The notes: generated from the letters alone by a model not told the origin. DNA of 64,000 nucleotides from Pseudomonadota bacterium (GCA_046300175.1 JBKCMS010000094.1:366-64365); one strand, 5' to 3'. Positions 4,744-52,335 are shown, counted from the first letter of the stretch. Made by a program: numbers and translations.

Positions 4744-4931
4744 GTAGAACTGGTCTTATAAGTATCTTCTGCTGCGGTTGAAGAGATGCGGGCTGCGACT
4801 TCGTCAAACTTCGCGAAAAAATCCTTGAGTGTATCTCAGTGGATACACCTCCGGTTTTTTCGCTCGTTTTCCTCGTCTAGCCTCACATCTCGCCAACCTC
4901 GCGAAGAAGCTACTTTTGAGACCAGTTCTAG
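4744..4931 (+). mobile_element. MITE-like element, family A, copy A2 (188 bp)
   Basis: Left end GTAGAACTGGTCTTATAAG and right end CTTTTGAGACCAGTTCTAG, with TA flanks. Internal hairpin GTGTATC-tcagtg-GATACAC (4829-4848), followed by a T tract at 4855-4860. Same orientation as A1 and collinear with it. Confidence 0.8.
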
Positions 4932-24290: not shown

Positions 24291-26491
24291 GAGCTTCCTC
24301 CAATTAGCCGTTGCCACGGGGAGACGCTCTTTATGGTCACAGGAGTGCCAGGCGAGCATCCGGTTAGGGTTATCAGATTAAATCCTGCATCGCTGGCGCT
24401 TGCTCCGATTGAGCACGAGGTCGAGGAGATAAATGGAAAATGTCGAAACTTGAGAGTGAGGGATTCTGAGGTTGGGATAAAAGACACCGAGTTGGAGGTG
24501 TAGGTCAGGTCAGCTAGGCTGCCATTCATCGTATACGATGGCGAGTAGTTTAAACGCCTGAATACGAAAAATATCTCGCCACGCCACACCTGCTCGTATT
24601 CGTTCGGACGTTTCTTGAAGTAGTCTATCCACGTTGGCTCATGGGCCGTTACCACTGTGGCGTTCATCAGGTCTAGAAATTCTTTAATACCTTGATCTCC
24701 GCGGGAGATAAACGACTCCGGGATAGGTTGTTCGTATCTCCAGATGTTGTGTGCATAGCTCGATGCCACCATCGGAGTCTTTGCCCACAGCGGCAGTGGT
24801 GCGAGGTGCCCTCCACTGAACTGGTGCAATACACATCCGCTAAAAAGCACGCGCCCACCCGCGGCATGTTTAGATACGGCGCGAATAAAAGATGGAAGCT
24901 CTTTGTCTGCAAAGCTGTAGGTGTCATCTGCTCGATTAAGAACTACAGAGGTGGCCGTGAACGGACTTACTAAGACAAACGCTCCAGAGCAGATTGCCGC
25001 TAAGGTGAAAGTGATCCCACGTCCAGCTGAGGTAAAAAGTTGATACAGGAATTGACCTATGGGGATGGTGACTAAAATCGACGCGATGATAATCATTCGG
25101 TCAAGCTCTAGCTGCGGCTTGAGCGATACCCCAGCAGTGCCGAGTAGCAGCAGCCAGGAGCAGAGTGCAATCAGGTACCAGCGCGCAATACCAGAAAATG
25201 CTATCAGTGCCGGTATGGCGAAAACCACTAAGATTGGGTTGAGTGCGGTCGCGTTGCTTTGCCAATTAGCGAGGGCATTTTTTAGACTAAAAGTGCCGCT
25301 TTTGTGGCGATAGATCGTTGCACTAGCAGGGGAGTTGGGGGGAGCTAGAGAATTCGATGACTCACTTGAGGCTACTGGCGTTGGCGGGACAACAGCAGTG
25401 TGCGAATCGAGAAAGCGCCCCACATTGGAGACCTTCCACATCATACACATCCATGGCAGGTTTAAAGCTAACATTATGCACGCAGCGGCGAGATGTCGCT
25501 TTGAGAGAATTAGCTTAGGAATTCGTGGCAGCGCAACAAGTAGAATCGGTAGTGCTGCTATACCTGAGGGAGACCACAGTAGCATCAGAGTCGTCGTAAT
25601 GCATACGAGAACCATAGCGGCGCGAGATGGACGCTCAGCATGGATGAAGCGGATTGCTAATGCCGCAACCAAAGGAAATAGCGCAGTGCTGGTGATAAAA
25701 CCAACCGTGCCGTACTTTAGCGCCCAGCGAAACCAGAAGAGACCTGAACACAACGAGAGAGTGGTAGCAATAGAAGCAGCAACCACCGGAAGACCGAGCA
25801 TTCGTGCAGCTGCAAAGAGGCATGCAGGCGCAATAACCCAGAGCAGCCCGCCTATTAATATCGGATAAATAGCTTCCACGGGGAAAAGGTGAACGAGTGG
25901 GGCGCTTAGCAGGTATGCGTTTAGGGCTCCGGTGGCAAAAAAATCTCGCGCATCAAAGCCCGCGTTCCATAATGGAGACCAGAAAGGAATAGAAGGGAAA
26001 TTTTCGCGCAGGAGTTTTAACCTGAATAGAAACATCGGATGGTCATCTGAGAAGATCATCATCCCGTTAGCCGCGACTGAGAATGACCAGATGAGAAGTC
26101 CAATGACGACCATCGGCCAGCTAGCAAAGAAGCGTGACCAGAGTCGATAATGAAATAGAATGAAACAGATTATTGCGCCGACAAATAGCTCACCTCGGAT
26201 AGTTGGCCCCTTAAAGAGCCCCCAGGGTCTGTTCATCCAATCGGATATAAAGATGGCGAGTAAACCGAGCGTCCAGATACGCCTTTCTGTAAATGACTCC
26301 TTCTTGAGCCACCCTTGGCCGATTAAGTACGACACGCATGCTGCAGAAGCTGATAGCAAAAAGCCCGCGAGGACGAGATAGCGGCCAGCGGGGATCAGCG
26401 CTTCGTTTGAGCGTTCCCAGAGATACCAAGCACCTCCTGAAAGGCCCAGCACTATGAGCAGAAGTCCTGACGAGGCGAGGAGATGAATCAC
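24287..26491 (-). CDS. Large polytopic membrane protein, possibly a GT-C-fold glycosyltransferase/polymerase-like enzyme
   Basis: 734 aa with at least 12 hydrophobic segments. An acidic loop motif early in the protein (...IFSDDHPMF...) recalls GT-C enzymes. The C-terminal roughly 200 aa look soluble. No diagnostic motif recognised. Confidence 0.5.
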   Translation of the reverse strand: MIHLLASSGLLLIVLGLSGGAWYLWERSNEALIPAGRYLVLAGFLLSASAACVSYLIGQGWLKKESFTERRIWTLGLLAIFISDWMNRPWGLFKGPTIRGELFVGAIICFILFHYRLWSRFFASWPMVVIGLLIWSFSVAANGMMIFSDDHPMFLFRLKLLRENFPSIPFWSPLWNAGFDARDFFATGALNAYLLSAPLVHLFPVEAIYPILIGGLLWVIAPACLFAAARMLGLPVVAASIATTLSLCSGLFWFRWALKYGTVGFITSTALFPLVAALAIRFIHAERPSRAAMVLVCITTTLMLLWSPSGIAALPILLVALPRIPKLILSKRHLAAACIMLALNLPWMCMMWKVSNVGRFLDSHTAVVPPTPVASSESSNSLAPPNSPASATIYRHKSGTFSLKNALANWQSNATALNPILVVFAIPALIAFSGIARWYLIALCSWLLLLGTAGVSLKPQLELDRMIIIASILVTIPIGQFLYQLFTSAGRGITFTLAAICSGAFVLVSPFTATSVVLNRADDTYSFADKELPSFIRAVSKHAAGGRVLFSGCVLHQFSGGHLAPLPLWAKTPMVASSYAHNIWRYEQPIPESFISRGDQGIKEFLDLMNATVVTAHEPTWIDYFKKRPNEYEQVWRGEIFFVFRRLNYSPSYTMNGSLADLTYTSNSVSFIPTSESLTLKFRHFPFISSTSCSIGASASDAGFNLITLTGCSPGTPVTIKSVSPWQRLIGGSS

Positions 26492-26730: not shown

Positions 26731-27873
26731 CTAATTCTCGGTCTTGCTCGGATTCTGCACCCCGTGTTCGGAGTAGAAGCTATCGAAGCTAAAGACCGCA
26801 TCAGAAAAGGATGCCAGAGCTCGGTCGTTGTCGCGCTTATTTAGCGCATCTAGACCCTCTGCAAGCCTAGTCTTGATTATTTCCAGATTAGAGGGCTTAA
26901 AGTTTAGGTAGTGTTTTCCATCTGCCGATTTGCGAGCCTCGTAACACTGCAGGCTTGAGACTAGGTTGGCTACTGCTCCGAGGGTTTCCCCTTGCGCCTG
27001 CTGTATCAGAGCTTGAAGGGCAAAGTATCTAGGGCTCTCTTCTAGCTTCTCGCTGCATGCGAGGCACTGAGCTGCCGAGTTCGGATCTTGAAAGTGCAGA
27101 AATAATGCAGCTAGAGAGTGGTACGAAGCAGCGGCGCTCTCTTCGCTAAAAGATCTCCAGTCATGCTTGGGAAATAGCTCCTCGATGTTCATGCCGTCGA
27201 TTGCAGCGCGAAGGCATCGGGCCTTTGCCGCATTTGATAAGGTGCACAGTTGAGAAAGGGTCTCTGGATTCACAAGCGGTGTGATCCTGGCGGTCGTGCG
27301 CACATAGTCTCCATCGGAGATAGCGGTGATCATCGCTCTCGCCATGATTTCAATGACTGACTCGTTTCGGGCAGAGCATGCTGACGTCATCGTGCTTCGC
27401 GAAGTCGAAATACTCATCAGAGGCCATGCACTTGAGCTTTGAAGCATTGCCACGATCGATTCTGGTGAAAACTCAGTGGTGCTCACTGAGCTATTTGATA
27501 GAGCTGGAGCAACGATTATATGTTCGTTCAAATTTCTATTCTCTATCTCTGGCACAAGTTTTGAGAGGTCCGTCTCTGTGAATACTAAAGCGGAGTTAAC
27601 CATAAATACCCGCTTGCTGGCGGCGATTGATACCGCCTGCGCCACGGCTTCAGGGAGTGTCTCTGCCGTGATCCACATTCCAGTCGAGAATCCCTCTGGA
27701 GCCTGCTGGGTGCTTGCCACCAAGATATCCGCAAACGCTTTGACATCGTCGAGGAGTTGAGTTGTATCGACAACTGCAGCTTGCGTTCCGATTTCATCGA
27801 TAACTATCGCGCTATGCATAAGAACCCCGTTAACCATCGCGTTAAAAACAGGCTGAGCGCCTATAATTTCCAC
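26731..27873 (-). CDS. Hypothetical soluble protein (orphan)
   Basis: 380-aa ORF, co-directional with and 105 nt downstream of the TamB-Omp85 gene. The N-terminal roughly 100 aa are vaguely Roadblock/LC7-like and the C-terminal part is helical and TPR-like. I am not confident of any family match. Confidence 0.5.
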   Translation of the reverse strand: MEIIGAQPVFNAMVNGVLMHSAIVIDEIGTQAAVVDTTQLLDDVKAFADILVASTQQAPEGFSTGMWITAETLPEAVAQAVSIAASKRVFMVNSALVFTETDLSKLVPEIENRNLNEHIIVAPALSNSSVSTTEFSPESIVAMLQSSSAWPLMSISTSRSTMTSACSARNESVIEIMARAMITAISDGDYVRTTARITPLVNPETLSQLCTLSNAAKARCLRAAIDGMNIEELFPKHDWRSFSEESAAASYHSLAALFLHFQDPNSAAQCLACSEKLEESPRYFALQALIQQAQGETLGAVANLVSSLQCYEARKSADGKHYLNFKPSNLEIIKTRLAEGLDALNKRDNDRALASFSDAVFSFDSFYSEHGVQNPSKTEN

Positions 27874-27978: not shown

Positions 27979-30900
27979 TTAGAACATACTGCCGACTGAA
28001 AAATGGATTCTGACAGAGGGCTCTCCAGACTTCTCATCGAGTGGTCGCCCCAGGTCAAAGCCGATTGGGCCTATCGGCGAGAGATACTGGAATCCGACTC
28101 CAACACTGGTGCGCAGGTCTTCCAGATCAAAGTCCTGATGCTGCAGGAACACATTTCCGAAGTCAAAGAAGAGGTGAGTACTTACTGAATCATCGGCGAG
28201 GTATTGAAGTTGTGTTTTACCGGCTATCATCGCATCACCTCCGATGACTGCACCATCTGAGCCCCTAGGGCCGAGAGAATTCTCCCTAAACCCGCGCACG
28301 GTAGTACGACCACCGAGATAAAAGCGCTGAGTGATCGGAATCTCTTCTGTGTCGCCCCACGGTTTAGAGATGCCTCCACTCAAACCAAGGCCCAGAGAAT
28401 AACGCGATCCGTAGCCAGCGAGCGGTATAATGGCGCTACTCTTGGCAACCAGAGAGCCAAAGTTGGCTTCAGAGGCAATTTGCTGAAAGGCAACTTTAGG
28501 CTCCACTGTCACTGTATAGCCGGATCTGGGTAGGAGTGGGTCATCGCGTTTGTCGTATTTAATGATGCTCGAAAGGAAGCTTAGGCGCACCGAGCCGTCG
28601 TCTAAATCTGAGATGACAGCACCGGGTGTCACATCTTGTAGGTTATCGAACACAAGCGAGTGCCCCGCAGAGAACGCAAGTTCATTTTGTATCTGTCTAA
28701 ACAAGTAAGAACCCACCAAGAGTCGATCAATGTTGAACTCCTGAGTGCTTAACTCCTGTCGTTGGTAACGGACTTCTTCGGTCAGGGAATATTCGGAATC
28801 TAGGAAGGACGGATCTGAATATCGCAGGCTAGTAAAGCCCTGACTGATCAGACCTGAGCCACTTGGATTGATCTGCGCCTGGTCAAAATATGTATCAACA
28901 CGGAGGGATAGGGTACGTCCATCAGAAAAGAGAGATTTGTTTGTGGCCTCGCCAAAGGTATGCAGGCCGAATTCGGAATTAGCGCCTAGCCCTAGTTCGA
29001 GAGTCTGCATCGGGCGTTCCACAACTCGAATTATCAGTGCCTCGTTGGCTCCATCGATAGCTCCATCTTGGGCTGTAATCTCAACCCTTGAAAACAATCC
29101 CGTCCGCAAAAGCTCCCGTTTGGTGGCATTGATATCTTCAACTCGGTAGGGAGATGCAGGTTTTAGTTTCGTTGATCTAGCTGCAGTACGTTCGGAAATA
29201 GACACCAGTCCTTCATAGGTGATTGAGCCCACAATCGTTCGCTGTCCCGGCACAACCGACACACTAATAGCTGAGTAGTCATCAGTGGGTGTGGCAAATA
29301 CCGCAGGTGATAGAAAGCCTTCGTTGCTGAGAGACTCAATCAGCAGGTCGATATACATATTCACCCGCGGCAGAGATATCTGGCCAGATGGAGGTTTTGG
29401 GAGATTTAACCCCGCTGGGTACCCGCTGACTTCGCCTAAATTCAAACGTTGAGGTTCTCCCTCTTGGATTGTGAACACAACATCAACTGAGCTTGATTTT
29501 TCGCGTTGCCGAATATCATACGAAGCAGCAGCGTCGGGGTAGCCTTCGTGGTGATACACAGATACGATGGCATCGCGCAGGGCGTCTAAGCGAGCCGGAA
29601 TTGCAAAGGTTGCATCCATGGCAGCCACGTGCTCTTTTAAGCCCATAGAATTCATCGACTTGATCAGGTTCGATCTGCTTAGGTGAGAATTCCCGATCAA
29701 GCTTAAAGTCTTGATTTCCACCGGTGCCTCTTCAGTGATGGCAATCCGATAAACCAGTCTCTCTGGATCGGACCTATCTTCAGAGTGAGAAACCTGAGCA
29801 AAAAGGTAACCCTCTTCCTGATACATTCGTTCGATGTTTTGGATGAGCAGGGTAATAGTATTATTTCCGAATGGTCGTTTGCGAGAGAATAGATCGATAC
29901 TGTTTAGAAAGTCTTCTTCTGTGAATTCCTTATTGCCAGTGAATGTAAAGGATATAGCCTGTCTAAGCTCTGATGTTACTACTAGGGTGCTTGAATGGTT
30001 TACTATATCGTGCCGGTAAGAAGGCGTAATGCGGGCTGCGATATAACCTTCGTTGCGCAGTGAGAGTACGAGTGCCCGCTCTACGCTGGCGAGAATTGAT
30101 GAGGTAGCGAGGGTCTTAATAGGAGCAATGGAGGTAACCTTTTGTACTAGCTCCGGGCTCAATTCGTCTCCCTCGAATATCACTCCCGAAACAGTGCTTG
30201 GTTGTCGCTCTTGAATGGTAATTAGCAGATCGTGACAAAACTTATCTCCTGAGCGACAGGAGACAGATGCGGACGCTGCTGTAAAACCGTGCTCGTTCAT
30301 GTATGTAGCTATCTGATTTTGAATTAGTGTCAGGCTCTCTGGAGTGTTCGCTATACGAGATGATGGGCCAAGACGAGCGGCGTTCAGGATTGACTGTTCA
30401 CTGAATTGGTTTAATCCCTCGATCGAAATAGTTACGAACCGAGATTCCTCGGACCATACAGTATAGGTCAGGTCGCTCGACAGAATAGAGTTTTTCTGGG
30501 TGCTGACGGTCTGGAAGAAAGCATTAATGTCAAGCGCTGGGGTAAGAGAGTAAACACCACCTGCTCGTGAATTACTAACTGAGCTAAACAAGCTCTCGCC
30601 AAGTAGGGTCAGGCGCGGAGAGATATTCTTACGCGCCACTACGGCAGGCTCAATTGTGCCGGTGAACTGGTTATATGCAGGTTCGAATGAGAGGATGTCA
30701 AGCTTGGTCAGGTTGCGGAAGAATGCTTTAAAGCTTGAGAAGGAGGTATCAGAGATGAAAAATCGCTGGTCTGAGCCAAACTGTGAGTCCATGCGGCCCT
30801 TCATCGTGCTTTCACCAAGCGGGCGGGATGAAGTAAGAATTAGTAGCAGGTCGCTTTGGGAGAGCCCTCGGTCAGAGTTAAGTGAAAACTTAGGAGCAGA

Positions 30901-33708
30901 GAGCGGACCTGATGCGTCGAGTATCACCAGTATACTCTCACCTGTTGGTGCTCGCAGGTTGCCTTCACCCACCAGCTCAAGGTGCGGAATAAGTGATGAA
31001 GGTTTAAAAGTTAGTCCTCCTGAAGTGATGTCAAATCGATTACCTTTCAGGCCAGCCCAGCCGCTGAGAATCTGCATGGAGCCTTCCAGAGCAGGTGATG
31101 TCACAGTGCCTCTAGCACGGAGATTAGTGTTGAGCTCGGCACTAAGAAATGGTGTCACAACGAATATATTCCGAGGGGCGGAAATTGCTACGTCAAGCTC
31201 CAGGTCCACTGAACTCTTCTTCGCTGCCGGCTGGATACGAGTCGGTAGGAAGTATCCGGAAATTGTGCTCATAATTAGCTTGTTTAGATCGAAGTCCTTA
31301 GCTACCTCCGCAAAAGTAATGTCTAAAGCACCTGAGAGAGTTTGGCGCTGTTTCTGATTAACGCCGAGAGCTAAGTCTCCCGAGAAAGTGATCGTAGCGT
31401 CCTCAATCGGTTCAATAGTCACCTCTTTTAGCTCGGTGCGTAGAGAGGAGTTGCCCGGTTCAAAGGGCAGAAGAGTGCCAGAGGCCGTAAAGGTGCCACC
31501 ATTCACTGAGCCTCCAAGTTTATTGATCCGAATAGCTCGCCCTGACAGAGAAAAATCCCCTGATATATGGTGGCCTCCTAGCTCCGGGGATGAAACACCG
31601 AACTGACCGTTAATTAGCTGGGCTGTTCCGGTTACTAATGGCTGCGATAAAGCGCCCTGAATGGATACATCGGTTTTTAATAGTCCACGGAGATCATCCA
31701 TGGCCGGTAAAAGAGGCAGCAGTGAGCTTAATTCAAGGCGTCCTCGTGCGGACATAGCAAAACCTTTGGCAATGCCCAGCTCACCATCAAGCTCCAGAGC
31801 GCTTTCCAGGGTAGCCAACGAGAGATTCTTGAGTTGCAATGCCCCGTTTCGTATCGGTATGCGCGACTCAGGCGGTGCTGATAGAGAGTAGGGGGCACAA
31901 CCTATTGCTAAAGAGTGCAGAATTACTTCACCGCTCCCTGCAAGAATCGCCTGTAGAGGAAATGTATAGGATAGTGAAGCTCCTACCTTACTGCACTCAT
32001 CTTCGTGACCTACGATCTCTTTCAGCTTGACCTCGGGTTGTGTGAAGCGCAGCTTGCCTTCGTAGCTCTTAGCAAAATCAACGGTGAGCTCCGCGCCAGC
32101 TCTTAGAGGAGAATTGGGTAGGGTAACTCTAAGTACTCCATCTTTAAGATTGGCTCGACCTGATAAAGGATACCCTGCGTGAAGCGCCGGCGAACGCACA
32201 GTTATATCCCCATCGGCAAGTAGAGTATTCAATCCTAGCGGCCCACGTAGCGCTATCTGAGAGGTGAAGGCTAGCGGACTTAGTGTCTCTTTGGTTACTG
32301 GAAGGGACAACGGGTAGCGATAATCGACGAGACTCAAGGAGCTGTCCTTTAGTGAAGCATCCGGTGATGATAGGTCGATCAGACCGCGCCACTTGAGCAC
32401 TCCTTGCTGTTTGTTGGAGCTCTCTACTGCGATGTCAGCGGCGGTTGGTGATACATGTATCTGAATCCGACTTGGTCCCAGTGAGAATCCCTGCATCAGG
32501 AGGTCATCTGATGTGATGGTAATATCGGTTGAGACGCCCGCCGGCCCCTCTGTGACATCGATCGTAGCGTTTGCTTTGGTTACCGCGAACGGCCCGTACT
32601 CAAATCGAGGTACCTTAGCGCTAAACCCGGCAGCTAGGCCCGCATCAGATAGCTTTAGGGGCTTAGTTGAGGTAAGCACCGCCTGTTCGTTTGAGGCATT
32701 AAGATCGGTCAGAGTGATGACCGGGTCTCCTCGGTTTACGTCGATTGTGAGTCCGCCAGACAGCTTTGGAAAATTTAGCTGGGATGCAAACGGCAGCGCT
32801 ATGGAGAAGGCGGTGTCGGGGCTACTCTGAATACTTCCGGTTAGTAGAGGGCTGCCAAGGGTCCCCGATATTGTGGTGTTGCCGATAATCAGGCCACGTA
32901 GCCAATCGGGAAGACCTATATAGTCGGGGGATACCGTGAAGGAGGTGTTACCTGAGAAAGTTGAGCTCTGGTCAGATAGAGCGACCCCAGTTGCTTCAAT
33001 ATGAGAGCGGTCGCGACCGAGGGTTAGAGACCTAAAAACGGTCTGCGCATCCTCAATCATTATTGAGCCAGCTAGTGGGCCGAGAAATAATTCCTGCGGA
33101 GGAGAACCAGGAGTGTCACCGTAAGTTGTGTAGCGGAAATCAGCGATACGGGGAGTGAGGGCATAATATTCACCATCTCGTTTAACGCTAAGAGATACGC
33201 CAGAGCCTGATATCTCGCTAGAACCAAAGGATTCGCGCAGGAATGATTTCCTGACCTCAAGGGAGTCCAAGATAACACGCCATCTGTCTGGCAACTGTTT
33301 CTCCGGTGGGAGCGGTTTTGTTAACTGATCGATAAATCTGAATGTAACTGAATTAGGACCAACGCCATCGGCCGTGCCATCATTAAGGATAAGATTGCGC
33401 AGATGAACCTTGCGGTCACGAATCTCAGAGATATCGATCTTGGTCGTAATAGTCTTGAAAGATAGTCTCGGCACACCTTTCTCGACGATTCGAACGTTAC
33501 GGGCGCGAGCTCTCAAGGTGGAGAACGAGAGGGAGAGAGAGTCAAAAGCAAGCGAGCAATCGCACGAGGCTATAACCTCCTCCTCAAGAGCGCTAACCAC
33601 CTCATTTATCAACCACTGTTTTGCTAGGAGTATGACTGCCCCGGTGGACAGGCCAAGGAAGAGGCCGATAGAAGCCAGTGTTTTGCCGCGAAACAGTCTA
33701 CGTATCAC
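27979..33708 (-). CDS. Single-chain TamB-like (AsmA-like/DUF490) + POTRA + Omp85 beta-barrel fusion protein
   Basis: Uninterrupted 1909-aa ORF.
- aa 1 to about 1085: signal anchor (LASIGLFLGLSTGAVILLA), a long beta-rich body, and a DUF490-type end (...SAPKFSLNSDRGLSQSDLLLILTSSRPLG..., ...ARKNISPRLTLLGESLF...).
- aa about 1090-1565: repeated POTRA-like units ending in ...EGY(I/L/P)...
- aa about 1565-1909: Omp85 barrel (...RFYLGGRTTVRGFRENSLGP..., ...VGVGFQYLSPIGPIGFDLGRPL..., terminal ...SVGSMF). Confidence 0.8.
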   Translation of the reverse strand: MIRRLFRGKTLASIGLFLGLSTGAVILLAKQWLINEVVSALEEEVIASCDCSLAFDSLSLSFSTLRARARNVRIVEKGVPRLSFKTITTKIDISEIRDRKVHLRNLILNDGTADGVGPNSVTFRFIDQLTKPLPPEKQLPDRWRVILDSLEVRKSFLRESFGSSEISGSGVSLSVKRDGEYYALTPRIADFRYTTYGDTPGSPPQELFLGPLAGSIMIEDAQTVFRSLTLGRDRSHIEATGVALSDQSSTFSGNTSFTVSPDYIGLPDWLRGLIIGNTTISGTLGSPLLTGSIQSSPDTAFSIALPFASQLNFPKLSGGLTIDVNRGDPVITLTDLNASNEQAVLTSTKPLKLSDAGLAAGFSAKVPRFEYGPFAVTKANATIDVTEGPAGVSTDITITSDDLLMQGFSLGPSRIQIHVSPTAADIAVESSNKQQGVLKWRGLIDLSSPDASLKDSSLSLVDYRYPLSLPVTKETLSPLAFTSQIALRGPLGLNTLLADGDITVRSPALHAGYPLSGRANLKDGVLRVTLPNSPLRAGAELTVDFAKSYEGKLRFTQPEVKLKEIVGHEDECSKVGASLSYTFPLQAILAGSGEVILHSLAIGCAPYSLSAPPESRIPIRNGALQLKNLSLATLESALELDGELGIAKGFAMSARGRLELSSLLPLLPAMDDLRGLLKTDVSIQGALSQPLVTGTAQLINGQFGVSSPELGGHHISGDFSLSGRAIRINKLGGSVNGGTFTASGTLLPFEPGNSSLRTELKEVTIEPIEDATITFSGDLALGVNQKQRQTLSGALDITFAEVAKDFDLNKLIMSTISGYFLPTRIQPAAKKSSVDLELDVAISAPRNIFVVTPFLSAELNTNLRARGTVTSPALEGSMQILSGWAGLKGNRFDITSGGLTFKPSSLIPHLELVGEGNLRAPTGESILVILDASGPLSAPKFSLNSDRGLSQSDLLLILTSSRPLGESTMKGRMDSQFGSDQRFFISDTSFSSFKAFFRNLTKLDILSFEPAYNQFTGTIEPAVVARKNISPRLTLLGESLFSSVSNSRAGGVYSLTPALDINAFFQTVSTQKNSILSSDLTYTVWSEESRFVTISIEGLNQFSEQSILNAARLGPSSRIANTPESLTLIQNQIATYMNEHGFTAASASVSCRSGDKFCHDLLITIQERQPSTVSGVIFEGDELSPELVQKVTSIAPIKTLATSSILASVERALVLSLRNEGYIAARITPSYRHDIVNHSSTLVVTSELRQAISFTFTGNKEFTEEDFLNSIDLFSRKRPFGNNTITLLIQNIERMYQEEGYLFAQVSHSEDRSDPERLVYRIAITEEAPVEIKTLSLIGNSHLSRSNLIKSMNSMGLKEHVAAMDATFAIPARLDALRDAIVSVYHHEGYPDAAASYDIRQREKSSSVDVVFTIQEGEPQRLNLGEVSGYPAGLNLPKPPSGQISLPRVNMYIDLLIESLSNEGFLSPAVFATPTDDYSAISVSVVPGQRTIVGSITYEGLVSISERTAARSTKLKPASPYRVEDINATKRELLRTGLFSRVEITAQDGAIDGANEALIIRVVERPMQTLELGLGANSEFGLHTFGEATNKSLFSDGRTLSLRVDTYFDQAQINPSGSGLISQGFTSLRYSDPSFLDSEYSLTEEVRYQRQELSTQEFNIDRLLVGSYLFRQIQNELAFSAGHSLVFDNLQDVTPGAVISDLDDGSVRLSFLSSIIKYDKRDDPLLPRSGYTVTVEPKVAFQQIASEANFGSLVAKSSAIIPLAGYGSRYSLGLGLSGGISKPWGDTEEIPITQRFYLGGRTTVRGFRENSLGPRGSDGAVIGGDAMIAGKTQLQYLADDSVSTHLFFDFGNVFLQHQDFDLEDLRTSVGVGFQYLSPIGPIGFDLGRPLDEKSGEPSVRIHFSVGSMF

Positions 33709-34551: not shown

Positions 34552-35475
34552 TCAGTCGACTCGCTTAGGAATGTCTGCTGTGTGTTTCCAAGCGTGGTAT
34601 GAGCTGCGCACAAATGGCCCTGATTCGACGAACTTAAACCCGCGCTTCATACCTTCGAGCTCATACTCTTTAAATTCTTCTGGGGTGATAAACGCTCTGA
34701 CTGGGAGTTGATTCTCTGATGGTCGGAGGTACTGGCCGATCGTCATCACATCAATTCCAGCATCTCGCATATCGTCCATTACCTGCAGAACTTCGTCTGC
34801 TGATTCTCCCAAACCAACCATGATGCCAGACTTGGTAACCACCAGTGGGTCGATCTCCTTCGCCCAGCGGTGAATAGCTAAAGAGCGTATGTAGCCGGCG
34901 CCCGGCCGAACTTTTCGGTATAACCGGGGAACCGTCTCGATATTGTGATTAAGCACGTCTACCTTGGCGCTAAGAATAGTTTCTAAGTCTTTGCGCGAGC
35001 CCTTGAGGTCTGGAATCAGCAGCTCAATCTTGCATTGAGGAGCGTGCTTGCGTATCGCCTGCACCGTTTTGCAGAAATGGCTAGCCCCGTTGTCGGCTAC
35101 ATCATCACGATCTACAGATGTCACCACTGCGTGACGAAGCCCGAGCTCCTTGACCGCAACTCCCACTCGCTCAGGCTCCAACGGATCAAGAGCAACGAGG
35201 GTTTCAGAGGTGCCTTTCTTTACCGAGCAAAAATGGCACCTGCGGGTGCACAACTCGCCCATGATCATGAATGTTGCTGTGTGGTGAGACCAGCACTCGC
35301 CGATGTTTGGGCACATCGCCTCTTCACATACAGTGTGCAGTTTGAGGTCCTTAACTATCTTTTTAGTTTCCAAGTACTCTGGCGAGCCTGGAGCTCTTAC
35401 CTTGAGCCACGAGGGCTTAACGATAGTTGTTGAATTACGAGGTACCTCAACCGCCATACGTGGCATCCTTATCAA
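34552..35475 (-). CDS. lipA: Lipoyl synthase
   Basis: CEEAMCPNIGECW and the radical-SAM motif CTRRCHFCSV; ...MVGLGE... near the C-terminus. Confidence 0.93.
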   Translation of the reverse strand: MIRMPRMAVEVPRNSTTIVKPSWLKVRAPGSPEYLETKKIVKDLKLHTVCEEAMCPNIGECWSHHTATFMIMGELCTRRCHFCSVKKGTSETLVALDPLEPERVGVAVKELGLRHAVVTSVDRDDVADNGASHFCKTVQAIRKHAPQCKIELLIPDLKGSRKDLETILSAKVDVLNHNIETVPRLYRKVRPGAGYIRSLAIHRWAKEIDPLVVTKSGIMVGLGESADEVLQVMDDMRDAGIDVMTIGQYLRPSENQLPVRAFITPEEFKEYELEGMKRGFKFVESGPFVRSSYHAWKHTADIPKRVD

Positions 35476-35488
35476 TACAGATAGTTAT

Positions 35489-36766
35489 TTAGGCCATCAG
35501 AAGGGCCGGCAGCTCAAGAGCTTCCTTAAAGTACTTGAGGAAGGTGCTGGCCATGACTCCGTCTATAATCCGGTGATCAACGGACACGGTAACCTTCATG
35601 ATAGAACCTACAACGATCTGACCACGGTATACCACAGGCTCCTCTTTGATAGCGCTAACAGCCAAGATACCTCCCTGCCCAGGGTTGATAATGGCTGTGA
35701 AATTTTCGACATCAAACATGCCCATGTTGGATATGCTAAACGTTCCACCAGATAGGTCACTCGAGCTGGGGCGGCCAGCACGAGCTCGTTCTATTGCCGC
35801 ACGAGCCTCAAACACAACGTCCTTGAGCGACATTCGGTCTACATCCTTTAGGACCGGTATAATCAAGCCGTCCTCAATTGCGGTGATGATTCCGATATTG
35901 ATGGATGCCGGTTGATAGAGCTGTCCGTCCCGCATTGCCGCGTTTACTCGCGGTTCCTTAGAGAGGCCATAGGCCGCAGCTTTAATTACTAAGTGGTTCA
36001 TCGAGATGCCCTTGTACTCAGGGCGCTCTTTGAGTACCTCACGTAGCCGCATAACCTCCCCCATGTTAATGGAGTTGGAGACGTAGAAGTGCGGCGCTGT
36101 GGTGACGCTCTCTTGCATCCGTCGAGCGATCGTCTCGCGCATTTTGGATAGCGGTGTGAAGGTTCCCGCAGCCGTTGTAGCCGGCATAACTGGTAGCGCT
36201 TGCGCGGGTTGAATTGCTGTTGCTGTGTTGCCTGTGACTGGAGTCGTTGGGGTGCCTGCTGCGGCTTCCACATCCCTGCGCACGATGCGCCCGTTGGGGC
36301 CGGAGCCCTGAACACCTGATAGGTTAACCTGGAGGTGTTCTGCAACCTTCTTTGCCAAAGGGCTGGCTTTGACACGATCATGAGACGCCACAACTGTGAG
36401 AGGAGTTGATTGGGCGTTCATAGAGGATGACACTGCAGGGGAAGTCTGTGTAGCAGAGACAGGTGTCGGCTGTGCATGGTAGGGGGCCGAGGTGGTCGCG
36501 GCTGGAGATGTGGTTCCTACTACTTCACCAGGCTGTCCGATGACTGCGATCGCTTCGCCAACTTTGGCCACCGAGCCGGCTGGAACCATGATCTTCAATA
36601 GAGATCCGTTGAAGAACGACTCGATCTCCAGGTTGGCTTTATCGGTTTCTACCTCAGCGAGTATGTCTCCGCGTTTAACAACGTCGCCCTCTTTGAGCCT
36701 CCAGGTTAGTATCTTCCCTGAGCTCATGGTGTCACTAAGTTGAGGCATTTTAACATCGGTGGCCAT
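35489..36766 (-). CDS. 2-oxoacid dehydrogenase E2 component (dihydrolipoamide acyltransferase)
   Basis: Lipoyl domain (...EVETDKANLEIES...), an Ala/Pro/Thr linker, a subunit-binding domain (...ASPLAKKVAEHLQVNLSGVQGSGPNGRI...), and a catalytic domain (...SVDHRIIDG...). Confidence 0.9.
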   Translation of the reverse strand: MATDVKMPQLSDTMSSGKILTWRLKEGDVVKRGDILAEVETDKANLEIESFFNGSLLKIMVPAGSVAKVGEAIAVIGQPGEVVGTTSPAATTSAPYHAQPTPVSATQTSPAVSSSMNAQSTPLTVVASHDRVKASPLAKKVAEHLQVNLSGVQGSGPNGRIVRRDVEAAAGTPTTPVTGNTATAIQPAQALPVMPATTAAGTFTPLSKMRETIARRMQESVTTAPHFYVSNSINMGEVMRLREVLKERPEYKGISMNHLVIKAAAYGLSKEPRVNAAMRDGQLYQPASINIGIITAIEDGLIIPVLKDVDRMSLKDVVFEARAAIERARAGRPSSSDLSGGTFSISNMGMFDVENFTAIINPGQGGILAVSAIKEEPVVYRGQIVVGSIMKVTVSVDHRIIDGVMASTFLKYFKEALELPALLMA

Positions 36767-36991
36767 GGGGTACCTTTAAAAGATATAGATAGTCTCCGGG
36801 AGTATAGTAAATAGAGAGTCATTTGCCAAATGACCATAAAAAGTCCCGATTTATTGGCTCCGGGGGGTGCTGCTGTGCCCCATAACTGTCGTAAGAAAAA
36901 TAGTAGCTACTCACCGGTTTAAAAGGTTGTGGTTCATGCTTCATTTTTAATTATCACCATTTCGTTGATCATTCTTTCTGGTGAGTAGTTA

Positions 36992-37135
36992 GTTTTGCCA
37001 CCCCGCTTTGCTCTGCAAAGCTGCCCCTGAATAGGGCTAGTGTTTCCACCCCGCTTTGCTCTGCAAAGCTGCCCCTTAATAGGGCTAGTGTTTCCACCCC
37101 GCTTTGCTCTGCAAAGCTGCCCCTTAATAGGGGCT
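36992..37135. repeat. Tandem repeat, 3 copies x 48 bp, each containing the palindrome GCTTTGC-TCT-GCAAAGC
   Basis: The three copies are 36992-37039, 37040-37087 and 37088-37135. Copies 2 and 3 are identical except for the last few bases. Copy 1 differs at a handful of positions. The array lies in the divergent spacer between the E2 gene (start 36766, minus strand) and the 902-aa ORF (start 37221, plus strand). Confidence 0.95.
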
Positions 37136-37220: not shown

Positions 37221-39929
37221 ATGGCGCCGCAATTTCAGATTAGCAAAAGCTGTGGTCCTGTAATGAACGTAGTTGAGAAGGACGCCCTAGGGATAGATAG
37301 AGAAGAGGATGCATCCCCAGACACGGGAGCGCTGCGCAAGTCGGCAACACGATCGGTAGGGGGAACCCCGTCGGCAAGCAAGCTCAATCGTCTTCCTGCG
37401 GTTAGGGATCGGGGGCTTATACCCAAAATAGACATTAGGCGTTACCTGAGCGAAGGGTCCAAAGCCTTGCAGACTTTTGTCGCGCCGCTTGAAGAGCAGG
37501 TGAGGCGTTGCGGCAAGTACAGAAGCCACAAGCATCGCAGCTCTGCCCGAGCGCAGGCTAAGGTAGCAGAGCTAGTTCTCGAGGTTATTCGTCAGCTAGC
37601 CCACAAAGAGACTGGAGTCTTCAATCTCGAAGCTCCAGTGTCGCAGCTCCTAAATTCTCTTTTTGCCGGATCTGTTGAAGTCGGGATAGTTACCGGCTTG
37701 GCTCGCAGAGCTAACAAAGCGTTGGTGCTCAGGGATATGCGGCAGCGAGAGGCCTTAACTGATGGTGCCCGGGCGCAATCAGCGCGTGGACTGGCCTACG
37801 ATGTGGCCCGCGAGCTTGACGAATTGCTTATGCTGCTCAAGTGGTATGTTCGCCGCAAGATGAGCCTTTGCGCGCTTGAGCTTGAAGCTAACGGTGAGTT
37901 CGCACTGCTCGATTCTGGGCTATCAGCAACCAGCGACGATCACGATCTGCTGTTCTCGCTTGATGTTATGCACGACCATCAGGTCTTTGGGGTCAAAGGG
38001 TGTCTGTTAACCTGTGGCCTGAAGTTGCTGGGGCGCGATGGTGAAGCGTTGTGGCTGCGGGTGGCGATTCATGCTGGAGGAGCTCCGGTGATGGTCCGGC
38101 CCGAGTGGTCAAGCTGGACCGACCCCGGGGGCGCGGAGGCGGTTGAGCTGCTTCCAGAGCACGCACCGTTCTGCTCGCTTGTACCGATCAGACCAAACTC
38201 GCAAAGGCTGGTGATTGATGAGGTGCGGGCATTTGTTCCATACGCAGCCCTTCAATTGCCCGCAGGGCGTTCGGAAGTAGAGGTGGTGGTTACGGTGATT
38301 GATGGAGCCGGGCAAGAGGTAGTAAGTGCTACCCGGCTTGAAAGTATCTGTGTTCCCCATCGCCAACTCAGTCTAGCTCCTGTACCTGCTCCGCACTCAC
38401 TGGGAATGTGGCCACACGATGTTGTGTCTGGTGACAAGATCTCTGAACTAACGGTCACCTCAGGTTTCAAACCGGTAGCGGGTTGGGAGCGTCACTCGAT
38501 ATCGGTTGCTTTTGACCTATCGCTATTTATGCACGCAGGTGAAAGCGTAATGCTCGAGTGCCGATTTGTGAATTCAAGGGGTGAAGTAGTTGAATTGGCC
38601 TCTCTCGGCATGCCCTTTATCGCCAGCGAGCTGAATGTCGCAGTCGAGTCGCTATCATCATACCGCTATCGCCGGGTGTTGCACCCCAGAGGGGCTTGGA
38701 CCCTATATCAGGGGTTGTGCATCGATATCCCTGTCGAATTTCTTTTGCTGGCTCCCGGGTCTCATGAGATCACATGTGAGCTGGTGGTTGTTTCCGCAGA
38801 CGAACGGGTGCTGTGCGGGGATATGAGCCGAGTGCAAGTGCAGGTGCCTGACAGAGAGCCAAAGACAGAGGTCTCCAGCGCTAATCATGAATCCGAGCAG
38901 CGTAATGGAGCAGTATCAAGGAAGATTGCGCATGCGGGACTTCAAATTGATTCTTTGGATGTAGAACCTGTGTGGCAGAGCGGGACAGATGACTGCATCA
39001 GAGTGGAGGCTCGCTTTTCTCCTCGCAGTCATGCTCAGCAGTTGGCGGACCTCGCCGCCGGACGGGTGGGGGAGCTTTTTGCACCTTATCGTGTGGAGAT
39101 TTCTTTGGAGCGTGAAGACGGCCACGTATTGCTTCAGGCATACTCTGATTCCCTGGGGATGAGCTTCAAGCCGGTAACGAGGGCCGTTTGCGTTGACCCG
39201 TATACAGGACACCCAGACCACACGGTGGTTGCTAATTTCAGACGCGAGGAGGTGTTGGGTTGGTCGTTGGGCTCAGATAACAGCCGAGCTGCCGCTAAAT
39301 CGAGGATATTTGCCCGGGTGATCGCGTTTTCATTAGCGGGAGAGGTGCTGATATCCGAGAGTAAGGAGCTGTTTGTAAAGCCGCTAAGCGATGGAACTAG
39401 GCAGGTTGTGCAGATCACAGAGCCAGCTCCTCGTATTGTGGATGTGTCTGCTTTTGCCAATGCCCAAGGAGAGCGATTAACAGCGCGTGTATTGGTCAAC
39501 ATGCCAGTTAGTGAAGGGGGCGAAGAGAGCGCTATGGTTCGATTCGTGCTCTGCTTACCGGGCGGACGGCGGGATGTGATCGCGACCAAAGAGATTCGCC
39601 CGCTCAATACCGGGGTATGGACGCGCCAGGTACCAGGCCTCTGTCAGTACGGAGTTGATTGTGAGTATTCACTCCGTGGAATCACAACAACTACTGGTTG
39701 TTCTATAGAGGCCACGGTGGTGACGCAAGCTGGAGAGGCTCTTCATTCTCTAGAGCAGCCGATTAGGAGCGCCGGAGTGCTCTCAGAGCTCGATGAAAAT
39801 GCGGCTGATTTTGATTCGGATTTAGTCCCCACGGAAGCCTTGCTCGATAAGCAGATGGCGAATGCAGCAGAAGCTGTCTCTGTGGTTCCTTCCAAAGGGC
39901 TATTGGGGCGACTGTTTAGTAGAGCATAA
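37221..39929 (+). CDS. Large orphan protein with a helical basic N-terminal region and about 6-7 repeated beta-rich modules
   Basis: 902-aa ORF with no motif I recognise. Strand-like segments recur roughly every 90-100 aa: EVEVVVTVIDGAGQEVVSATR, VMLECRFVNSRGEVVELAS, EITCELVVVSADERVLCGD, YRVEISLEREDGHVLLQAY, IFARVIAFSLAGEVLISES, MVRFVLCLPGGRRDVIATK, SIEATVVTQAGEALHSL. The start codon is uncertain because no clear RBS is visible. Confidence 0.6.
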   Translation: MAPQFQISKSCGPVMNVVEKDALGIDREEDASPDTGALRKSATRSVGGTPSASKLNRLPAVRDRGLIPKIDIRRYLSEGSKALQTFVAPLEEQVRRCGKYRSHKHRSSARAQAKVAELVLEVIRQLAHKETGVFNLEAPVSQLLNSLFAGSVEVGIVTGLARRANKALVLRDMRQREALTDGARAQSARGLAYDVARELDELLMLLKWYVRRKMSLCALELEANGEFALLDSGLSATSDDHDLLFSLDVMHDHQVFGVKGCLLTCGLKLLGRDGEALWLRVAIHAGGAPVMVRPEWSSWTDPGGAEAVELLPEHAPFCSLVPIRPNSQRLVIDEVRAFVPYAALQLPAGRSEVEVVVTVIDGAGQEVVSATRLESICVPHRQLSLAPVPAPHSLGMWPHDVVSGDKISELTVTSGFKPVAGWERHSISVAFDLSLFMHAGESVMLECRFVNSRGEVVELASLGMPFIASELNVAVESLSSYRYRRVLHPRGAWTLYQGLCIDIPVEFLLLAPGSHEITCELVVVSADERVLCGDMSRVQVQVPDREPKTEVSSANHESEQRNGAVSRKIAHAGLQIDSLDVEPVWQSGTDDCIRVEARFSPRSHAQQLADLAAGRVGELFAPYRVEISLEREDGHVLLQAYSDSLGMSFKPVTRAVCVDPYTGHPDHTVVANFRREEVLGWSLGSDNSRAAAKSRIFARVIAFSLAGEVLISESKELFVKPLSDGTRQVVQITEPAPRIVDVSAFANAQGERLTARVLVNMPVSEGGEESAMVRFVLCLPGGRRDVIATKEIRPLNTGVWTRQVPGLCQYGVDCEYSLRGITTTTGCSIEATVVTQAGEALHSLEQPIRSAGVLSELDENAADFDSDLVPTEALLDKQMANAAEAVSVVPSKGLLGRLFSRA

Positions 39930-39974: not shown

Positions 39975-40028
39975 CAAGCGCAGGGTTCGGAAAAAAGGAA
40001 GCTATTAAGCAAACTCCGGGACGGTGGC

Positions 40029-40229
40029 GCTAGCCCGCATATTTCATGATGCCTGCTACTACGATCGCCGATAACGGCGCTTTTTCGGCTCAAAAATCGA
40101 TTTTCGGACCGGAATGTATCACGATACGATCCCGCCCCAAAAATCGATTTTTGAATTCGCCCCACGGGCCCGAAAAATCACCATTCTCGGCGCTCTCGCG
40201 ACGCAGTTTCATGAAATATGCGGCCTAGC
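40029..40229 (+). mobile_element. MITE-like element, family B, copy B1 (201 bp)
   Basis: The termini GCCCGCATATTTCATGA and TCATGAAATATGCGGCC form an inverted repeat with 1 mismatch in 17. Both ends are flanked by TA. The interior holds the palindrome CAAAAATCGATTTTTG and an internal duplication of the AAAATCGATTTT region. The reverse complement aligns end to end with 52183-52335. Confidence 0.8.
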
Positions 40230-40234
40230 CCCTA

Positions 40235-40379
40235 ATGCGGGCTACGACTCCGTCAGACTTCGCGAAAAAATCCTTAGGTGTATCTCGCTGGATACACATC
40301 CGGTTTTTTGCTCTTTTCCCTCGTCTCGCCTTGCATCTCGGCAACCTCGCCACGAACCTACTTCTGAGACCAGTTTTAG
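40235..40379 (+). mobile_element. MITE-like element, family A, copy A3 (5'-truncated, abutting B1)
   Basis: Aligns with the right-hand roughly 145 bp of A1 and A2. This includes the hairpin GTGTATC-tcgctg-GATACAC (40278-40297), the T tract at 40304-40309, and the right terminus CTTCTGAGACCAGTTTTAG. The left terminal repeat is missing. Confidence 0.75.
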
Positions 40380-40398: not shown

Positions 40399-41127
40399 CT
40401 AGCGGAGCTGATCGTCGCAGCGGGGACAAGACCCGTATTCGACAAATGCGACAGGGGTAGGTGACCTACATCGCCGACACCAACCGATAAAAGCAGAGCG
40501 TTCAGGTTTCATCGCTGCCAACAGCATAATACCGACCAGTAGGTAGATCACATTCAGTGCTGGAGTAGTTGCTCTGCCGACGGATAGAGCGCCGCAGAGG
40601 CTAATGATACGAGCGGCGATAATCGGTATTGAGAAGAGAACAATCAGTTGACGTTCCCACAAGGCAACGTGCAGCCGAGGAGAGTCCAAAAGAGCTTTTG
40701 ACTGGGCACGGGTCTCGCGTAGCACGTGTTGAACAGACGAGACGATGCCAAGCAGCAGGATTGCAGCGACGATAACTGCGGCGATGGTATTAATACTCGG
40801 AAGTAGCAACAATTTGACTACTACTATGCCTGCCAGGCTTACCCCAAGTATTACTTTAAAACCCCTGTTGCCACTCGTTCGGCTATCACTTTGCCACTTG
40901 CGTAATGAGGCAGCGCGTTTTGCGACTACTTGTTGATTAAGAAAAGGTAGGGTTACAAGGGTGCAAACAGTCGCGATGATTTGAGCCTGAAGTGCCGAAA
41001 GAGCGCTGCCAAGGAAGATGGCAGCAGCGCCATCCAGCGCCACGGATAGAAACATCCAGCGCCACATCGCAGAGAGGCGGGTGTGTGGCCCTGTGCGGGT
41101 TAGTCTACCTGATGTATTGCCCTTCAA
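40399..41127 (-). CDS. Membrane protein with a C-terminal CxxC...CxxC zinc-ribbon
   Basis: About 6 hydrophobic segments, then ...WCRRCRSPTPVAFVEYGSCPRCDDQL. No family recognised. The start may instead be at the MWRWMF... codon (41067). Confidence 0.5.
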   Translation of the reverse strand: MKGNTSGRLTRTGPHTRLSAMWRWMFLSVALDGAAAIFLGSALSALQAQIIATVCTLVTLPFLNQQVVAKRAASLRKWQSDSRTSGNRGFKVILGVSLAGIVVVKLLLLPSINTIAAVIVAAILLLGIVSSVQHVLRETRAQSKALLDSPRLHVALWERQLIVLFSIPIIAARIISLCGALSVGRATTPALNVIYLLVGIMLLAAMKPERSAFIGWCRRCRSPTPVAFVEYGSCPRCDDQLR

Positions 41128-52182: not shown

Positions 52183-52335
52183 GCTAGCCAGGATATTTCA
52201 TGAAACTGCGTCGCGAGAGCGCCGGGAATGGTGATTTTTGGGGCCCGTAGGGCGAATTCAAAAATCGATTTTTGAACCGGAAAAGCGCCGTTATCGGCGA
52301 TCGTAGTAGCAGGCTTCATGAAATTTCCGGGCTAG
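52183..52335 (-). mobile_element. MITE-like element, family B, copy B2 (153 bp, inverted relative to B1, with an internal deletion)
   Basis: The termini GCCAGGATATTTCATGAA and TTCATGAAATTTCCGGGC are flanked by TA. It is collinear with the reverse complement of B1 but lacks about 48 bp of the internally duplicated segment. Confidence 0.78.

Follow-up and report, generated by a model that had tools for sequence, protein, structure and literature searches.

An undescribed protein family of uncultured freshwater Bdellovibrionota with Ig/FnIII-like domains and a candidate MinD-type membrane anchor

Several described proteins carry parts that resemble those of the gene product reported here. The membrane-targeting sequence (MTS) of E. 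coli MinD is KGFLKRLFGG (PMC5471200). In MinD, and likewise in FtsA, a short basic amphipathic peptide forms the C-terminus and is preceded by a flexible linker. Two consecutive seven-to-eight-stranded beta-sandwiches are found in V. cholerae RbmA, in the C-terminal beta-barrels 1-2 of transglutaminases and factor XIII and in MSCRAMM adhesins, where they are extracellular or serve as appendages of enzyme cores. Here we describe a gene whose product appears to combine both kinds of parts. It lies in a stretch of 64,000 nucleotides from a Pseudomonadota bacterium (GCA_046300175.1 JBKCMS010000094.1:366-64365), called the window below; all positions are those of the whole stretch. The gene is present, as an initial annotation of the window had described, as an unbroken open reading frame (ORF) at 37221-39929 on the plus strand, encoding 902 amino acids in its longest form. 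That annotation regarded the product as an orphan of undescribed function, encoded by an isolated, accessory or recently acquired locus. The function is indeed undescribed, as curated libraries and the PDB give nothing specific. The remaining part of the description has to be replaced: judged by sequence comparison, the protein is a member of a family that no database describes and that is apparently restricted to an uncultured lineage of Bdellovibrionota.

Among 5.8 billion proteins, a word-indexed search identified at least 100 relatives with 39-72% identity, mostly of full length (860-950 amino acids), all of them unnamed and without Pfam domains. When 1.84 billion representatives were searched exhaustively with HMMER, 100 clusters (at 50% identity) were obtained, 90 of which had E <= 1e-10. 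These clusters include a distant branch of 450-960 amino acids and 24-36% identity, with residues ~115-545 in common. Further searches added little to this picture: the output of a homologue search seeded with the broad alignment was dominated by the close family, a metagenome scan with an 11-sequence subset of the alignment found mostly close-family loci, and the distant sequences alone returned solely the query itself. Cluster look-ups of family members gave the name "hypothetical protein" in every case, with metagenome-assembled genomes (MAGs) as the source. When one genome per GTDB species was scanned, a homologue was found at 36 distinct loci, all in MAGs labelled Bdellovibrionota, Bdellovibrionales, "delta proteobacterium" or Pseudomonadota and derived mostly from lakes. 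The presence of the gene in related genomes, which had been proposed as a check, thus marks it as conserved across the lineage and not as accessory. The orphan status is lost through these homologues, not through a match to any known family. What seemed to be an orphan becomes a defined conserved family, which comprises about 100 sequence clusters, has a single copy in each genome and keeps a fixed position there. It would be suitable for registration as a new domain-of-unknown-function family, and the gene could act as a positional marker of this freshwater Bdellovibrionota clade. The impact is modest, as the organisms are uncultured and no long-standing open question has been touched so far.

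The absence of any recognised family was borne out in all libraries searched. Pfam gave 0 families at E <= 1 for the 902-residue protein and NCBIfam gave none either. The protein belongs to none of the curated fn3, Big_x, CARDB and TIG-type families. Pfam returned nothing useful for ten distant relatives, and across 51 members of the broad alignment (E <= 1) it returned scattered, non-recurrent noise with no consistent family. Searches of PDB sequences with the single sequence and two profiles found no relative, only a short motif of RC-S which is discussed below. Anti-phage defence and mobile-element cargo were considered and rejected: PADLOC had 0 matches, the best PHROGs hit had E = 0.13 and defined no family, and the gene had no tblastn match among 50,697 phage and 72,556 plasmid records. 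Residues invariant across the superfamily are chiefly W, G, P, F and Y, with few polar ones (R212, D252, D333, R448, E520), and because of this composition they do not look like a catalytic signature.

The homologues also correct the start site. Their N-termini read M-[NS]-V-[VA]-E-K and match M15 of the 902-residue ORF, so that the real start is probably at 37263 and the protein has 888 residues; the start of the longest ORF at 37221, taken over in the initial annotation, is then too far upstream. We keep the numbering of the 902-residue form throughout.

The position of the gene in the genome is as conserved as the gene itself. A giant TamB/Omp85 gene, RsmI, LipA and the E2 gene follow each other on one strand, the gene described here lies on the opposite strand, and a convergent gene for a zinc-ribbon membrane protein and XseA-XseB complete the order. 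We judged this order in every locus with enough flanking sequence (loci numbered L001-L054). It is the same in ~50 loci, down to 25-30% identity of the 902-residue protein; it is kept, for example, at 25-32% protein identity in L042, L048, L050, L053 and L054. Within the close family, identity to the window proteins amounts to 83-92% for LipA, 67-81% for E2, 57-83% for XseA, 48-69% for the 902-residue protein, 43-63% for RsmI and 27-50% for the zinc-ribbon membrane protein. The divergence of our protein lies between that of E2/XseA and that of RsmI, which suggests ordinary purifying selection of a housekeeping-like kind. Base composition points in the same direction, as the third-position GC content (GC3) of the gene is 0.545, against 0.47-0.58 in the long ORFs of the window, and its codon usage is native to the window. 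The comparison of codon usage and GC which the initial annotation had called for hence gives no sign of acquisition. We regard it as near certain that the gene is real and has core status: it is inherited vertically and belongs, as a single copy, to the core genome of an uncultured freshwater Bdellovibrionota clade.

The domain anatomy was derived from a full-length AlphaFold2 (AF2) model, based on a 40-sequence alignment (predicted local distance difference test, pLDDT, 68), and from a separate model of the core, residues 236-546, based on an 83-sequence alignment that includes the distant branch. The predicted parts are given below; identities are means within the close family unless the broad alignment is named.

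37263..39929, plus strand: protein-coding gene, probable true extent (888 amino acids plus stop; start as in homologues)
37263..37286, plus strand: conserved N-terminal peptide MNVVEKDA, residues 15-22 (65% identity)
37287..37418, plus strand: predicted disordered, poorly conserved N-terminal linker, residues 23-66 (27% identity; pLDDT < 50 for residues 1-66)
37419..37916, plus strand: predicted basic helical domain, residues 67-232, with helices 71-101, 109-131, 151-180 and 195-229 (AF2; 54% identity)
37932..38366, plus strand: predicted beta-sandwich 1, Ig/FnIII-like, residues 238-382 (core model, Foldseek at the level of fold; 64% identity)
38367..38441, plus strand: inter-domain motif ...APVPAPHSLGMWPHDVVSGDKISEL, residues 383-407, the most conserved segment (78% in the close family, 40% in the broad family)
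38442..38858, plus strand: predicted beta-sandwich 2, with the same strand order as beta-sandwich 1, residues 408-546 (models; 73% identity)
38934..39386, plus strand: predicted beta-sandwich 3, residues 572-722 (AF2; 61% identity)
39420..39776, plus strand: predicted beta-sandwich 4, the least conserved domain, residues 734-852 (AF2; 35% identity)
39777..39887, plus strand: acidic, variable, predicted disordered linker, residues 853-889 (pLDDT < 50 for 853-893; 23% identity)
39888..39926, plus strand: C-terminal basic amphipathic tail ...SKGLLGRLFSRA, candidate membrane-targeting helix (tail pattern; 41% identity)

The beginning of the N-terminal peptide recurs in distant members as M-[ED]-x-A-E-K. 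The basic, helical character ascribed to the N-terminal part is confirmed: residues 51-200 carry a net basic charge and helices are predicted between residues 71 and 229. This domain also contains the motif W208-Y-x-R212, in which W and R are invariant across the superfamily. In the core model, comprising beta1 and beta2, pLDDT reaches 90.9 and the predicted template modelling score (pTM) 0.87, and these values indicate that the two domains form a rigid unit. The motif between them, in which W397-D405 is invariant, is modelled confidently as well. The linker that separates beta2 from beta3 (residues 547-571) is variable, with 13% identity. As far as the models can tell, the domain architecture is well supported.

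The initial annotation proposed at least six beta-rich modules of 90-100 amino acids. The region is beta-rich, and the cited examples of a strand, G-x-E/Q and a second strand are real hairpins inside sandwiches, but their number and size do not hold, since the models show four beta-sandwiches of ~120-150 amino acids; the full-length AF2 model sets them at residues 243-378, 408-542, 574-719 and 738-849. The suggested search for internal repeats had a similarly divided outcome. BLAST self-comparison of the protein found no internal repeat, while hhalign gave weak signals between beta1 and beta2 (E = 0.01, in register over 115 columns) and between beta2 and beta4 (E = 0.0015). Any duplication of the beta domains would thus be ancient, and we do not claim tandem repeats at the level of sequence.

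Structure comparison assigns the core to a fold class and to nothing narrower. When the whole chain was compared to the PDB with Foldseek, many matches were significant but poor in geometry (template modelling score, TM, ~0.1), and all of them were multi-Ig proteins: the Bap BSP domain, TRAPPII, mastigoneme, transglutaminases, integrins and macroglobulins. With the core model, tandem Ig/FnIII pairs were matched with probability 1.0 and E ~1e-6 (RbmA, transglutaminase/factor XIII beta-barrels, MSCRAMM adhesins), at TM 0.2-0.3, a root-mean-square deviation (rmsd) of 12-20 A and identity <= 13%; BFVD yielded fold-level matches of the same type. The predicted core is a seven-to-eight-stranded two-sheet sandwich and qualifies as Ig-like/FnIII by structure comparison, at the level of fold only. 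In short, the structure prediction and Foldseek search proposed in the initial annotation produced a confident core fold, whose Ig/FnIII-like class is clear in the model, but no specific structural relative in the PDB or BFVD, only generic tandem Ig matches. Membership in arrestins, TRAPP, transglutaminases or adhesins is rejected on the same ground. RbmA, the transglutaminases and the MSCRAMMs share with our protein the two consecutive sandwiches; they are extracellular or attached to an enzyme core, whereas the 902-residue protein has neither an export signal nor a catalytic core. In particular, Pfam found no Transglut_core (the Cys-His-Asp papain-like core) in it, and the likeness to transglutaminases therefore rests on the beta-sandwich domains.

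Two other resemblances deserve comment. The large subunits of eukaryotic TRAPPII have a helical N-terminus followed by a string of beta-sandwiches, as predicted for our protein, and rank among the top Foldseek matches of the whole chain (7u06, E ~1e-9), but TM is ~0.11, rmsd exceeds 30 A and sequence similarity is lacking, so that nothing supports homology. The other concerns RC-S, a string-like periplasmic polypeptide that straps the reaction centre (RC) to LH1 (PMC8849296). In Gemmatimonas-type RC-S (PDB 9h19 chain S), a stretch of ~20 residues, PxPQA...(M/L)WP.D.V(S/T)G, resembles the motif between beta1 and beta2 (E = 7.7e-4 with the broad profile), which in our family (residues 383-407) takes the form (A/S)P(x)PQ/H..(G)(M/L)WP.D.V(S)G. 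The match spans 37 residues only and the locus has no photosynthesis context. We rejected homology to RC-S, a periplasmic strap, and regard the short-motif resemblance as probably coincidental.

The end of the protein, described in the initial annotation as acidic and finishing in ...GLLGRLFSRA, consists more exactly of an acidic stretch followed by KGLLGRLFSRA. Nearly every close homologue likewise ends in a terminal peptide of this kind after an acidic linker, which is variable and has a charge of -2 to -10 in most of them; examples of the peptide are KGLWGRLFGR, KGLLSWFRR, KTLWKRLFR or GKGFLKRLLGRLT. The consensus is [KR]-G-[LIF]-[LFW]-[SGK]-[WR]-[LF]-[FKR]-[RSG]. We searched the last 22 amino acids for the pattern [KRQ][GSTAN]-hydrophobic-hydrophobic-x-[KRW]-hydrophobic-[hydrophobic or K/R]; 80 of 91 close homologues have it, compared to 0 of 3,535 internal windows. 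When KGLLGRLFSRA is laid over the MTS of MinD, K1, G2, L4, R6, L7 and F8 are identical. Both tails are hydrophobic at positions 3, 4, 7 and 8 and basic at 1 and 6, and the hydrophobic register i, i+1, i+4, i+5 is common to them. Judged by its sequence, the tail would qualify as a C-terminal amphipathic MTS of the type known in MinD/ParA ATPases, and in both proteins it follows a flexible linker. The resemblance ends there: Pfam, NCBIfam and a regular expression found neither a ParA/MinD ATPase domain nor a Walker A motif, canonical or deviant (KGGxxK[ST]), in the 902-residue protein. The anchor device is the only thing the two have in common, almost certainly by convergence.

No transmembrane segment was detected in the protein (the maximum Kyte-Doolittle value over 19 residues is 1.48), and motif and hydropathy checks found no Tat motif, lipobox or hydrophobic N-terminus. 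The N-terminus, MNVVEKDALGIDREED..., is polar, and the earlier statement that signal peptide and transmembrane segment are lacking is upheld. Among 139 family members only one has a hydrophobic N-terminus. The protein contains 16 cysteines (1.8% Cys; family median 1.5%), several of which are conserved. On account of the MinD-like tail, the lack of an export signal and the cysteines, it is plausible that the protein resides in the cytoplasm and is attached peripherally to the inner membrane.

The presumed partner and the other genes needed for the following discussion are these:

40399..41127, minus strand: convergent polytopic membrane protein with C-terminal CxxC...CxxC zinc ribbon, candidate partner (hydrophobic segments, orthologues)
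35489..36766, minus strand: divergent neighbour, PDH-type (pyruvate dehydrogenase) dihydrolipoamide acyltransferase E2 (Pfam, NCBIfam; PDH type is the best match, below the equivalog cut-off)
34552..35475, minus strand: lipoyl synthase LipA, after E2 (Pfam, NCBIfam)

Both neighbours named in the initial annotation, the divergent E2 gene and the convergent gene of a membrane zinc-ribbon protein, are thus in place. An orthologue of the zinc-ribbon protein was found with a profile in 40 of the 42 loci that reach far enough, including 5 of 7 distant ones, and CxxC...CxxC is retained in 39 of these 40 orthologues. The protein has a basic N-terminus and a seemingly even number of hydrophobic segments, as read from overlapping segments; for these two reasons its zinc ribbon probably faces the cytoplasm, and this makes it a plausible partner of a cytoplasmic protein.

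A possible model of the protein's role can now be outlined; we infer the membrane tethering, the scaffold role and the partner from the features above. Starting from the N-terminus, the chain would consist of the N-terminal peptide, a disordered linker, the basic helical domain, the rigid beta1-beta2 pair, beta3, beta4, a flexible acidic linker and the MinD-type helix. The beta1-beta2 pair would be held together by the most conserved motif of the family. The C-terminal helix would tether the protein to the inner membrane by inserting into its cytoplasmic leaflet. Contacts with other proteins would then be made by the array of beta-sandwiches and the helical domain, in the manner of a non-enzymatic scaffold or adaptor, and the convergently encoded polytopic zinc-ribbon membrane protein is a likely contact. 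We therefore propose tentatively, as a possibility that falls somewhat short of probable, that the protein is a cytoplasmic non-enzymatic scaffold or adaptor, anchored in the inner membrane by a MinD-type helix and possibly acting with the zinc-ribbon protein. An extension of this proposal is that we see a lineage-specific component of cell architecture, in which the tethered Ig-like array and its zinc-ribbon partner organise a membrane-proximal complex, possibly the lipoylated 2-oxoacid dehydrogenase core; we consider it rather unlikely in this full form. To our knowledge, cytoplasmic Ig-fold scaffolds of this size are unusual in bacteria. What is new here is an undescribed family and an undescribed combination of domains, made of familiar parts. 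If the protein is indeed a tethered scaffold, an unusual architecture, a cytoplasmic Ig-fold array with a MinD-like anchor, joins the known organisers of inner-membrane proteins.

Several observations weigh against the tethered scaffold. Arrays of Ig/FnIII-like domains occur more typically in proteins outside the cell, and adhesins and matrix proteins head the Foldseek matches. The gene of the zinc-ribbon protein is convergent and does not form an operon with the 902-residue gene; the co-occurrence of the two could reflect phylogenetic inertia in a frozen gene block. The tail is modelled with low confidence (pLDDT ~40-50) and might bind a protein instead of the membrane. The tails of the distant branch, though often hydrophobic and basic, are heterogeneous, and because the strict tail pattern is rare there (2 of 45), membrane anchoring may not extend to the whole superfamily. 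Finally, "scaffold" is the default reading for a protein without a catalytic signature.

The first of these points leads directly to the view that the Ig-like domains are extracellular and that the protein is an adhesin- or matrix-like one exported by a non-classical route, for example by a C-terminal signal of the type I secretion system (T1SS). It would explain the likeness to extracellular tandem Ig/FnIII proteins (RbmA, the Bap BSP domain, MSCRAMM adhesins, integrin legs) and the conservation of the extreme C-terminus after an acidic region. These Foldseek similarities, however, are at the level of fold only, with TM of just 0.2-0.3 at <= 13% identity, and the basic amphipathic tail fits the format of the MinD MTS and not that of a secretion signal. 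The RTX motif GGxGxD is missing from the protein, and three or more copies of it occur in 0 of 139 family members; the 16 cysteines, several of them conserved, also speak against export. Genes of an ABC transporter, a membrane fusion protein (MFP) or TolC are absent nearby, where the neighbours are housekeeping genes. We find export quite improbable, and its specific form, a T1SS/RTX secreted adhesin, was rejected for the lack of GGxGxD, the 16 Cys and the lack of exporter genes in the conserved neighbourhood. A different client for the same membrane-tether anatomy, with which it is compatible, would be the product of the divergent E2-LipA unit; the protein might, for example, keep the lipoylated 2-oxoacid dehydrogenase core at the membrane as a factor for its assembly, localisation or regulation. 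The conservation of a bidirectional gene pair is often a sign of co-regulation, and E2-LipA is the one invariant neighbour: wherever a locus includes sequence upstream of the gene, the unit lies there in divergent orientation. The adjacency persists in L042, L050, L053 and L054 and even in the most rearranged distant loci: L051, in which a NadB-like gene is inserted and XseA and the zinc-ribbon protein are absent, and L052, in which ETF (electron transfer flavoprotein) genes follow the homologue. Where synteny breaks, the new neighbours are flavoproteins of oxidative metabolism (ETF, DAO, NadB-like), which would suit such a link. Its specificity is nevertheless backed by only about two independent rearrangements; the whole block rearranges slowly, and adjacency may be inertia. 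Besides, Pfam detected no lipoyl, E3-binding, PSBD or DNA-binding domain in the protein or its family, and the neighbourhood lacks genes for E1 and E3. The coupling to E2-LipA is in our opinion unlikely, and the tethered scaffold with the zinc-ribbon protein as the presumed contact is preferred.

The status of the gene itself was also open to two other explanations, the first of which depends on the repeats that flank it:

36990..37132, no strand: 3 x 48-nt tandem repeat in the divergent intergenic region between E2 and the gene, genome-specific (Tandem Repeats Finder, TRF, score 265, 96% matches)
40026..40379, no strand: two adjacent dispersed repeats, similar to miniature inverted-repeat transposable elements (MITE-like), between the convergent stop codons (terminal inverted repeats, copies elsewhere)

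Both the array upstream and the MITE-like repeats downstream had been recognised in the initial annotation, from which stems the idea that an orphan, accessory or recently acquired gene was brought in together with its flanking repeats. Repeats on both sides and the want of a known family speak for it. Against it stand at least 100 homologues, the same genomic slot in ~50 loci down to 25-30% identity, the presence in at least 36 species-level genomes, the native GC3 and codon usage, and the empty tblastn searches of phages and plasmids. Moreover, the repeats were not found in any of 54 related loci, the dispersed ones are copied elsewhere in the window, and the stop-to-stop spacer measures 470 nt here compared to ~13-40 nt in relatives. 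For these last reasons the repeats are genome-specific insertions into the intergenic spacers of a frozen gene order, and both dispersed families, absent from all related loci, are recent. Synteny and homologues together refute the accessory origin, and we find it scarcely credible. The other explanation, a spurious or non-functional ORF, could draw on the scan for promoters and terminators, in which no signal exceeded shuffle expectation and no clear sigma-70-like promoter was seen on the plus strand upstream of the gene. The 2.7-kb ORF nonetheless stays intact and full-length in dozens of genomes, its conservation follows the domains (78% in the inter-domain motif against 13-27% in linkers), and its core has a confident predicted fold. 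By this conservation the explanation is effectively refuted, and the chance left to it is negligible.

The repeats have some features of their own. Only the three copies at 36990-37132 of the 48-nt unit occur in the window, and none of the 54 related loci has a match. On visual inspection, two small palindromes can be seen in every unit, GCTTTGC-TCT-GCAAAGC and GCCCCT-TAAT-AGGGGC; the array could be a repetitive extragenic palindrome-like (REP-like) element or an array of regulator-binding sites. Downstream, the element at 40026-40232 is bounded by terminal inverted repeats of 24 nt; a copy with 93% identity, from which an internal segment is missing, lies at 52183-52335. The second repeat (40235-40379) has copies at 4786-4931 and 2228-2371. 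Rfam found RNA families absent from the entire window.

As for the neighbouring genes, the zinc-ribbon membrane protein belongs to an uncharacterised conserved family and, at the 27-50% identity given above, evolves much faster than its neighbours. Its sole Pfam match, DUF7103, scores 21.6 bits and stays below the cut-off of 27. The E2-LipA unit is conserved across the lineage, with no E1 or E3 gene close to it either in the window or at related loci. Elsewhere, the window consists of housekeeping chromosome, with GlyA, RibBA, HemF, FlgFGAHI and Upp. Three consecutive ORFs on the minus strand (22560-24359, 24287-26491 and 26731-27873; 599, 734 and 380 amino acids) lie upstream of the TamB/Omp85 gene; they match no Pfam family at E <= 1e-5 and represent further uncharacterised proteins of the lineage. 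The TamB/Omp85 gene itself (27979-33708, minus strand) is a 1909-residue ORF that unites TamB (residues 734-1083), POTRA (from 1254) and Omp85 (1627-1909) in a single chain. TamB and TamA, which form the inner- and outer-membrane parts of the translocation and assembly module, seem to be fused in this ORF, and its orthologues, 1,890-1,925 amino acids long, occupy the same position throughout the lineage.

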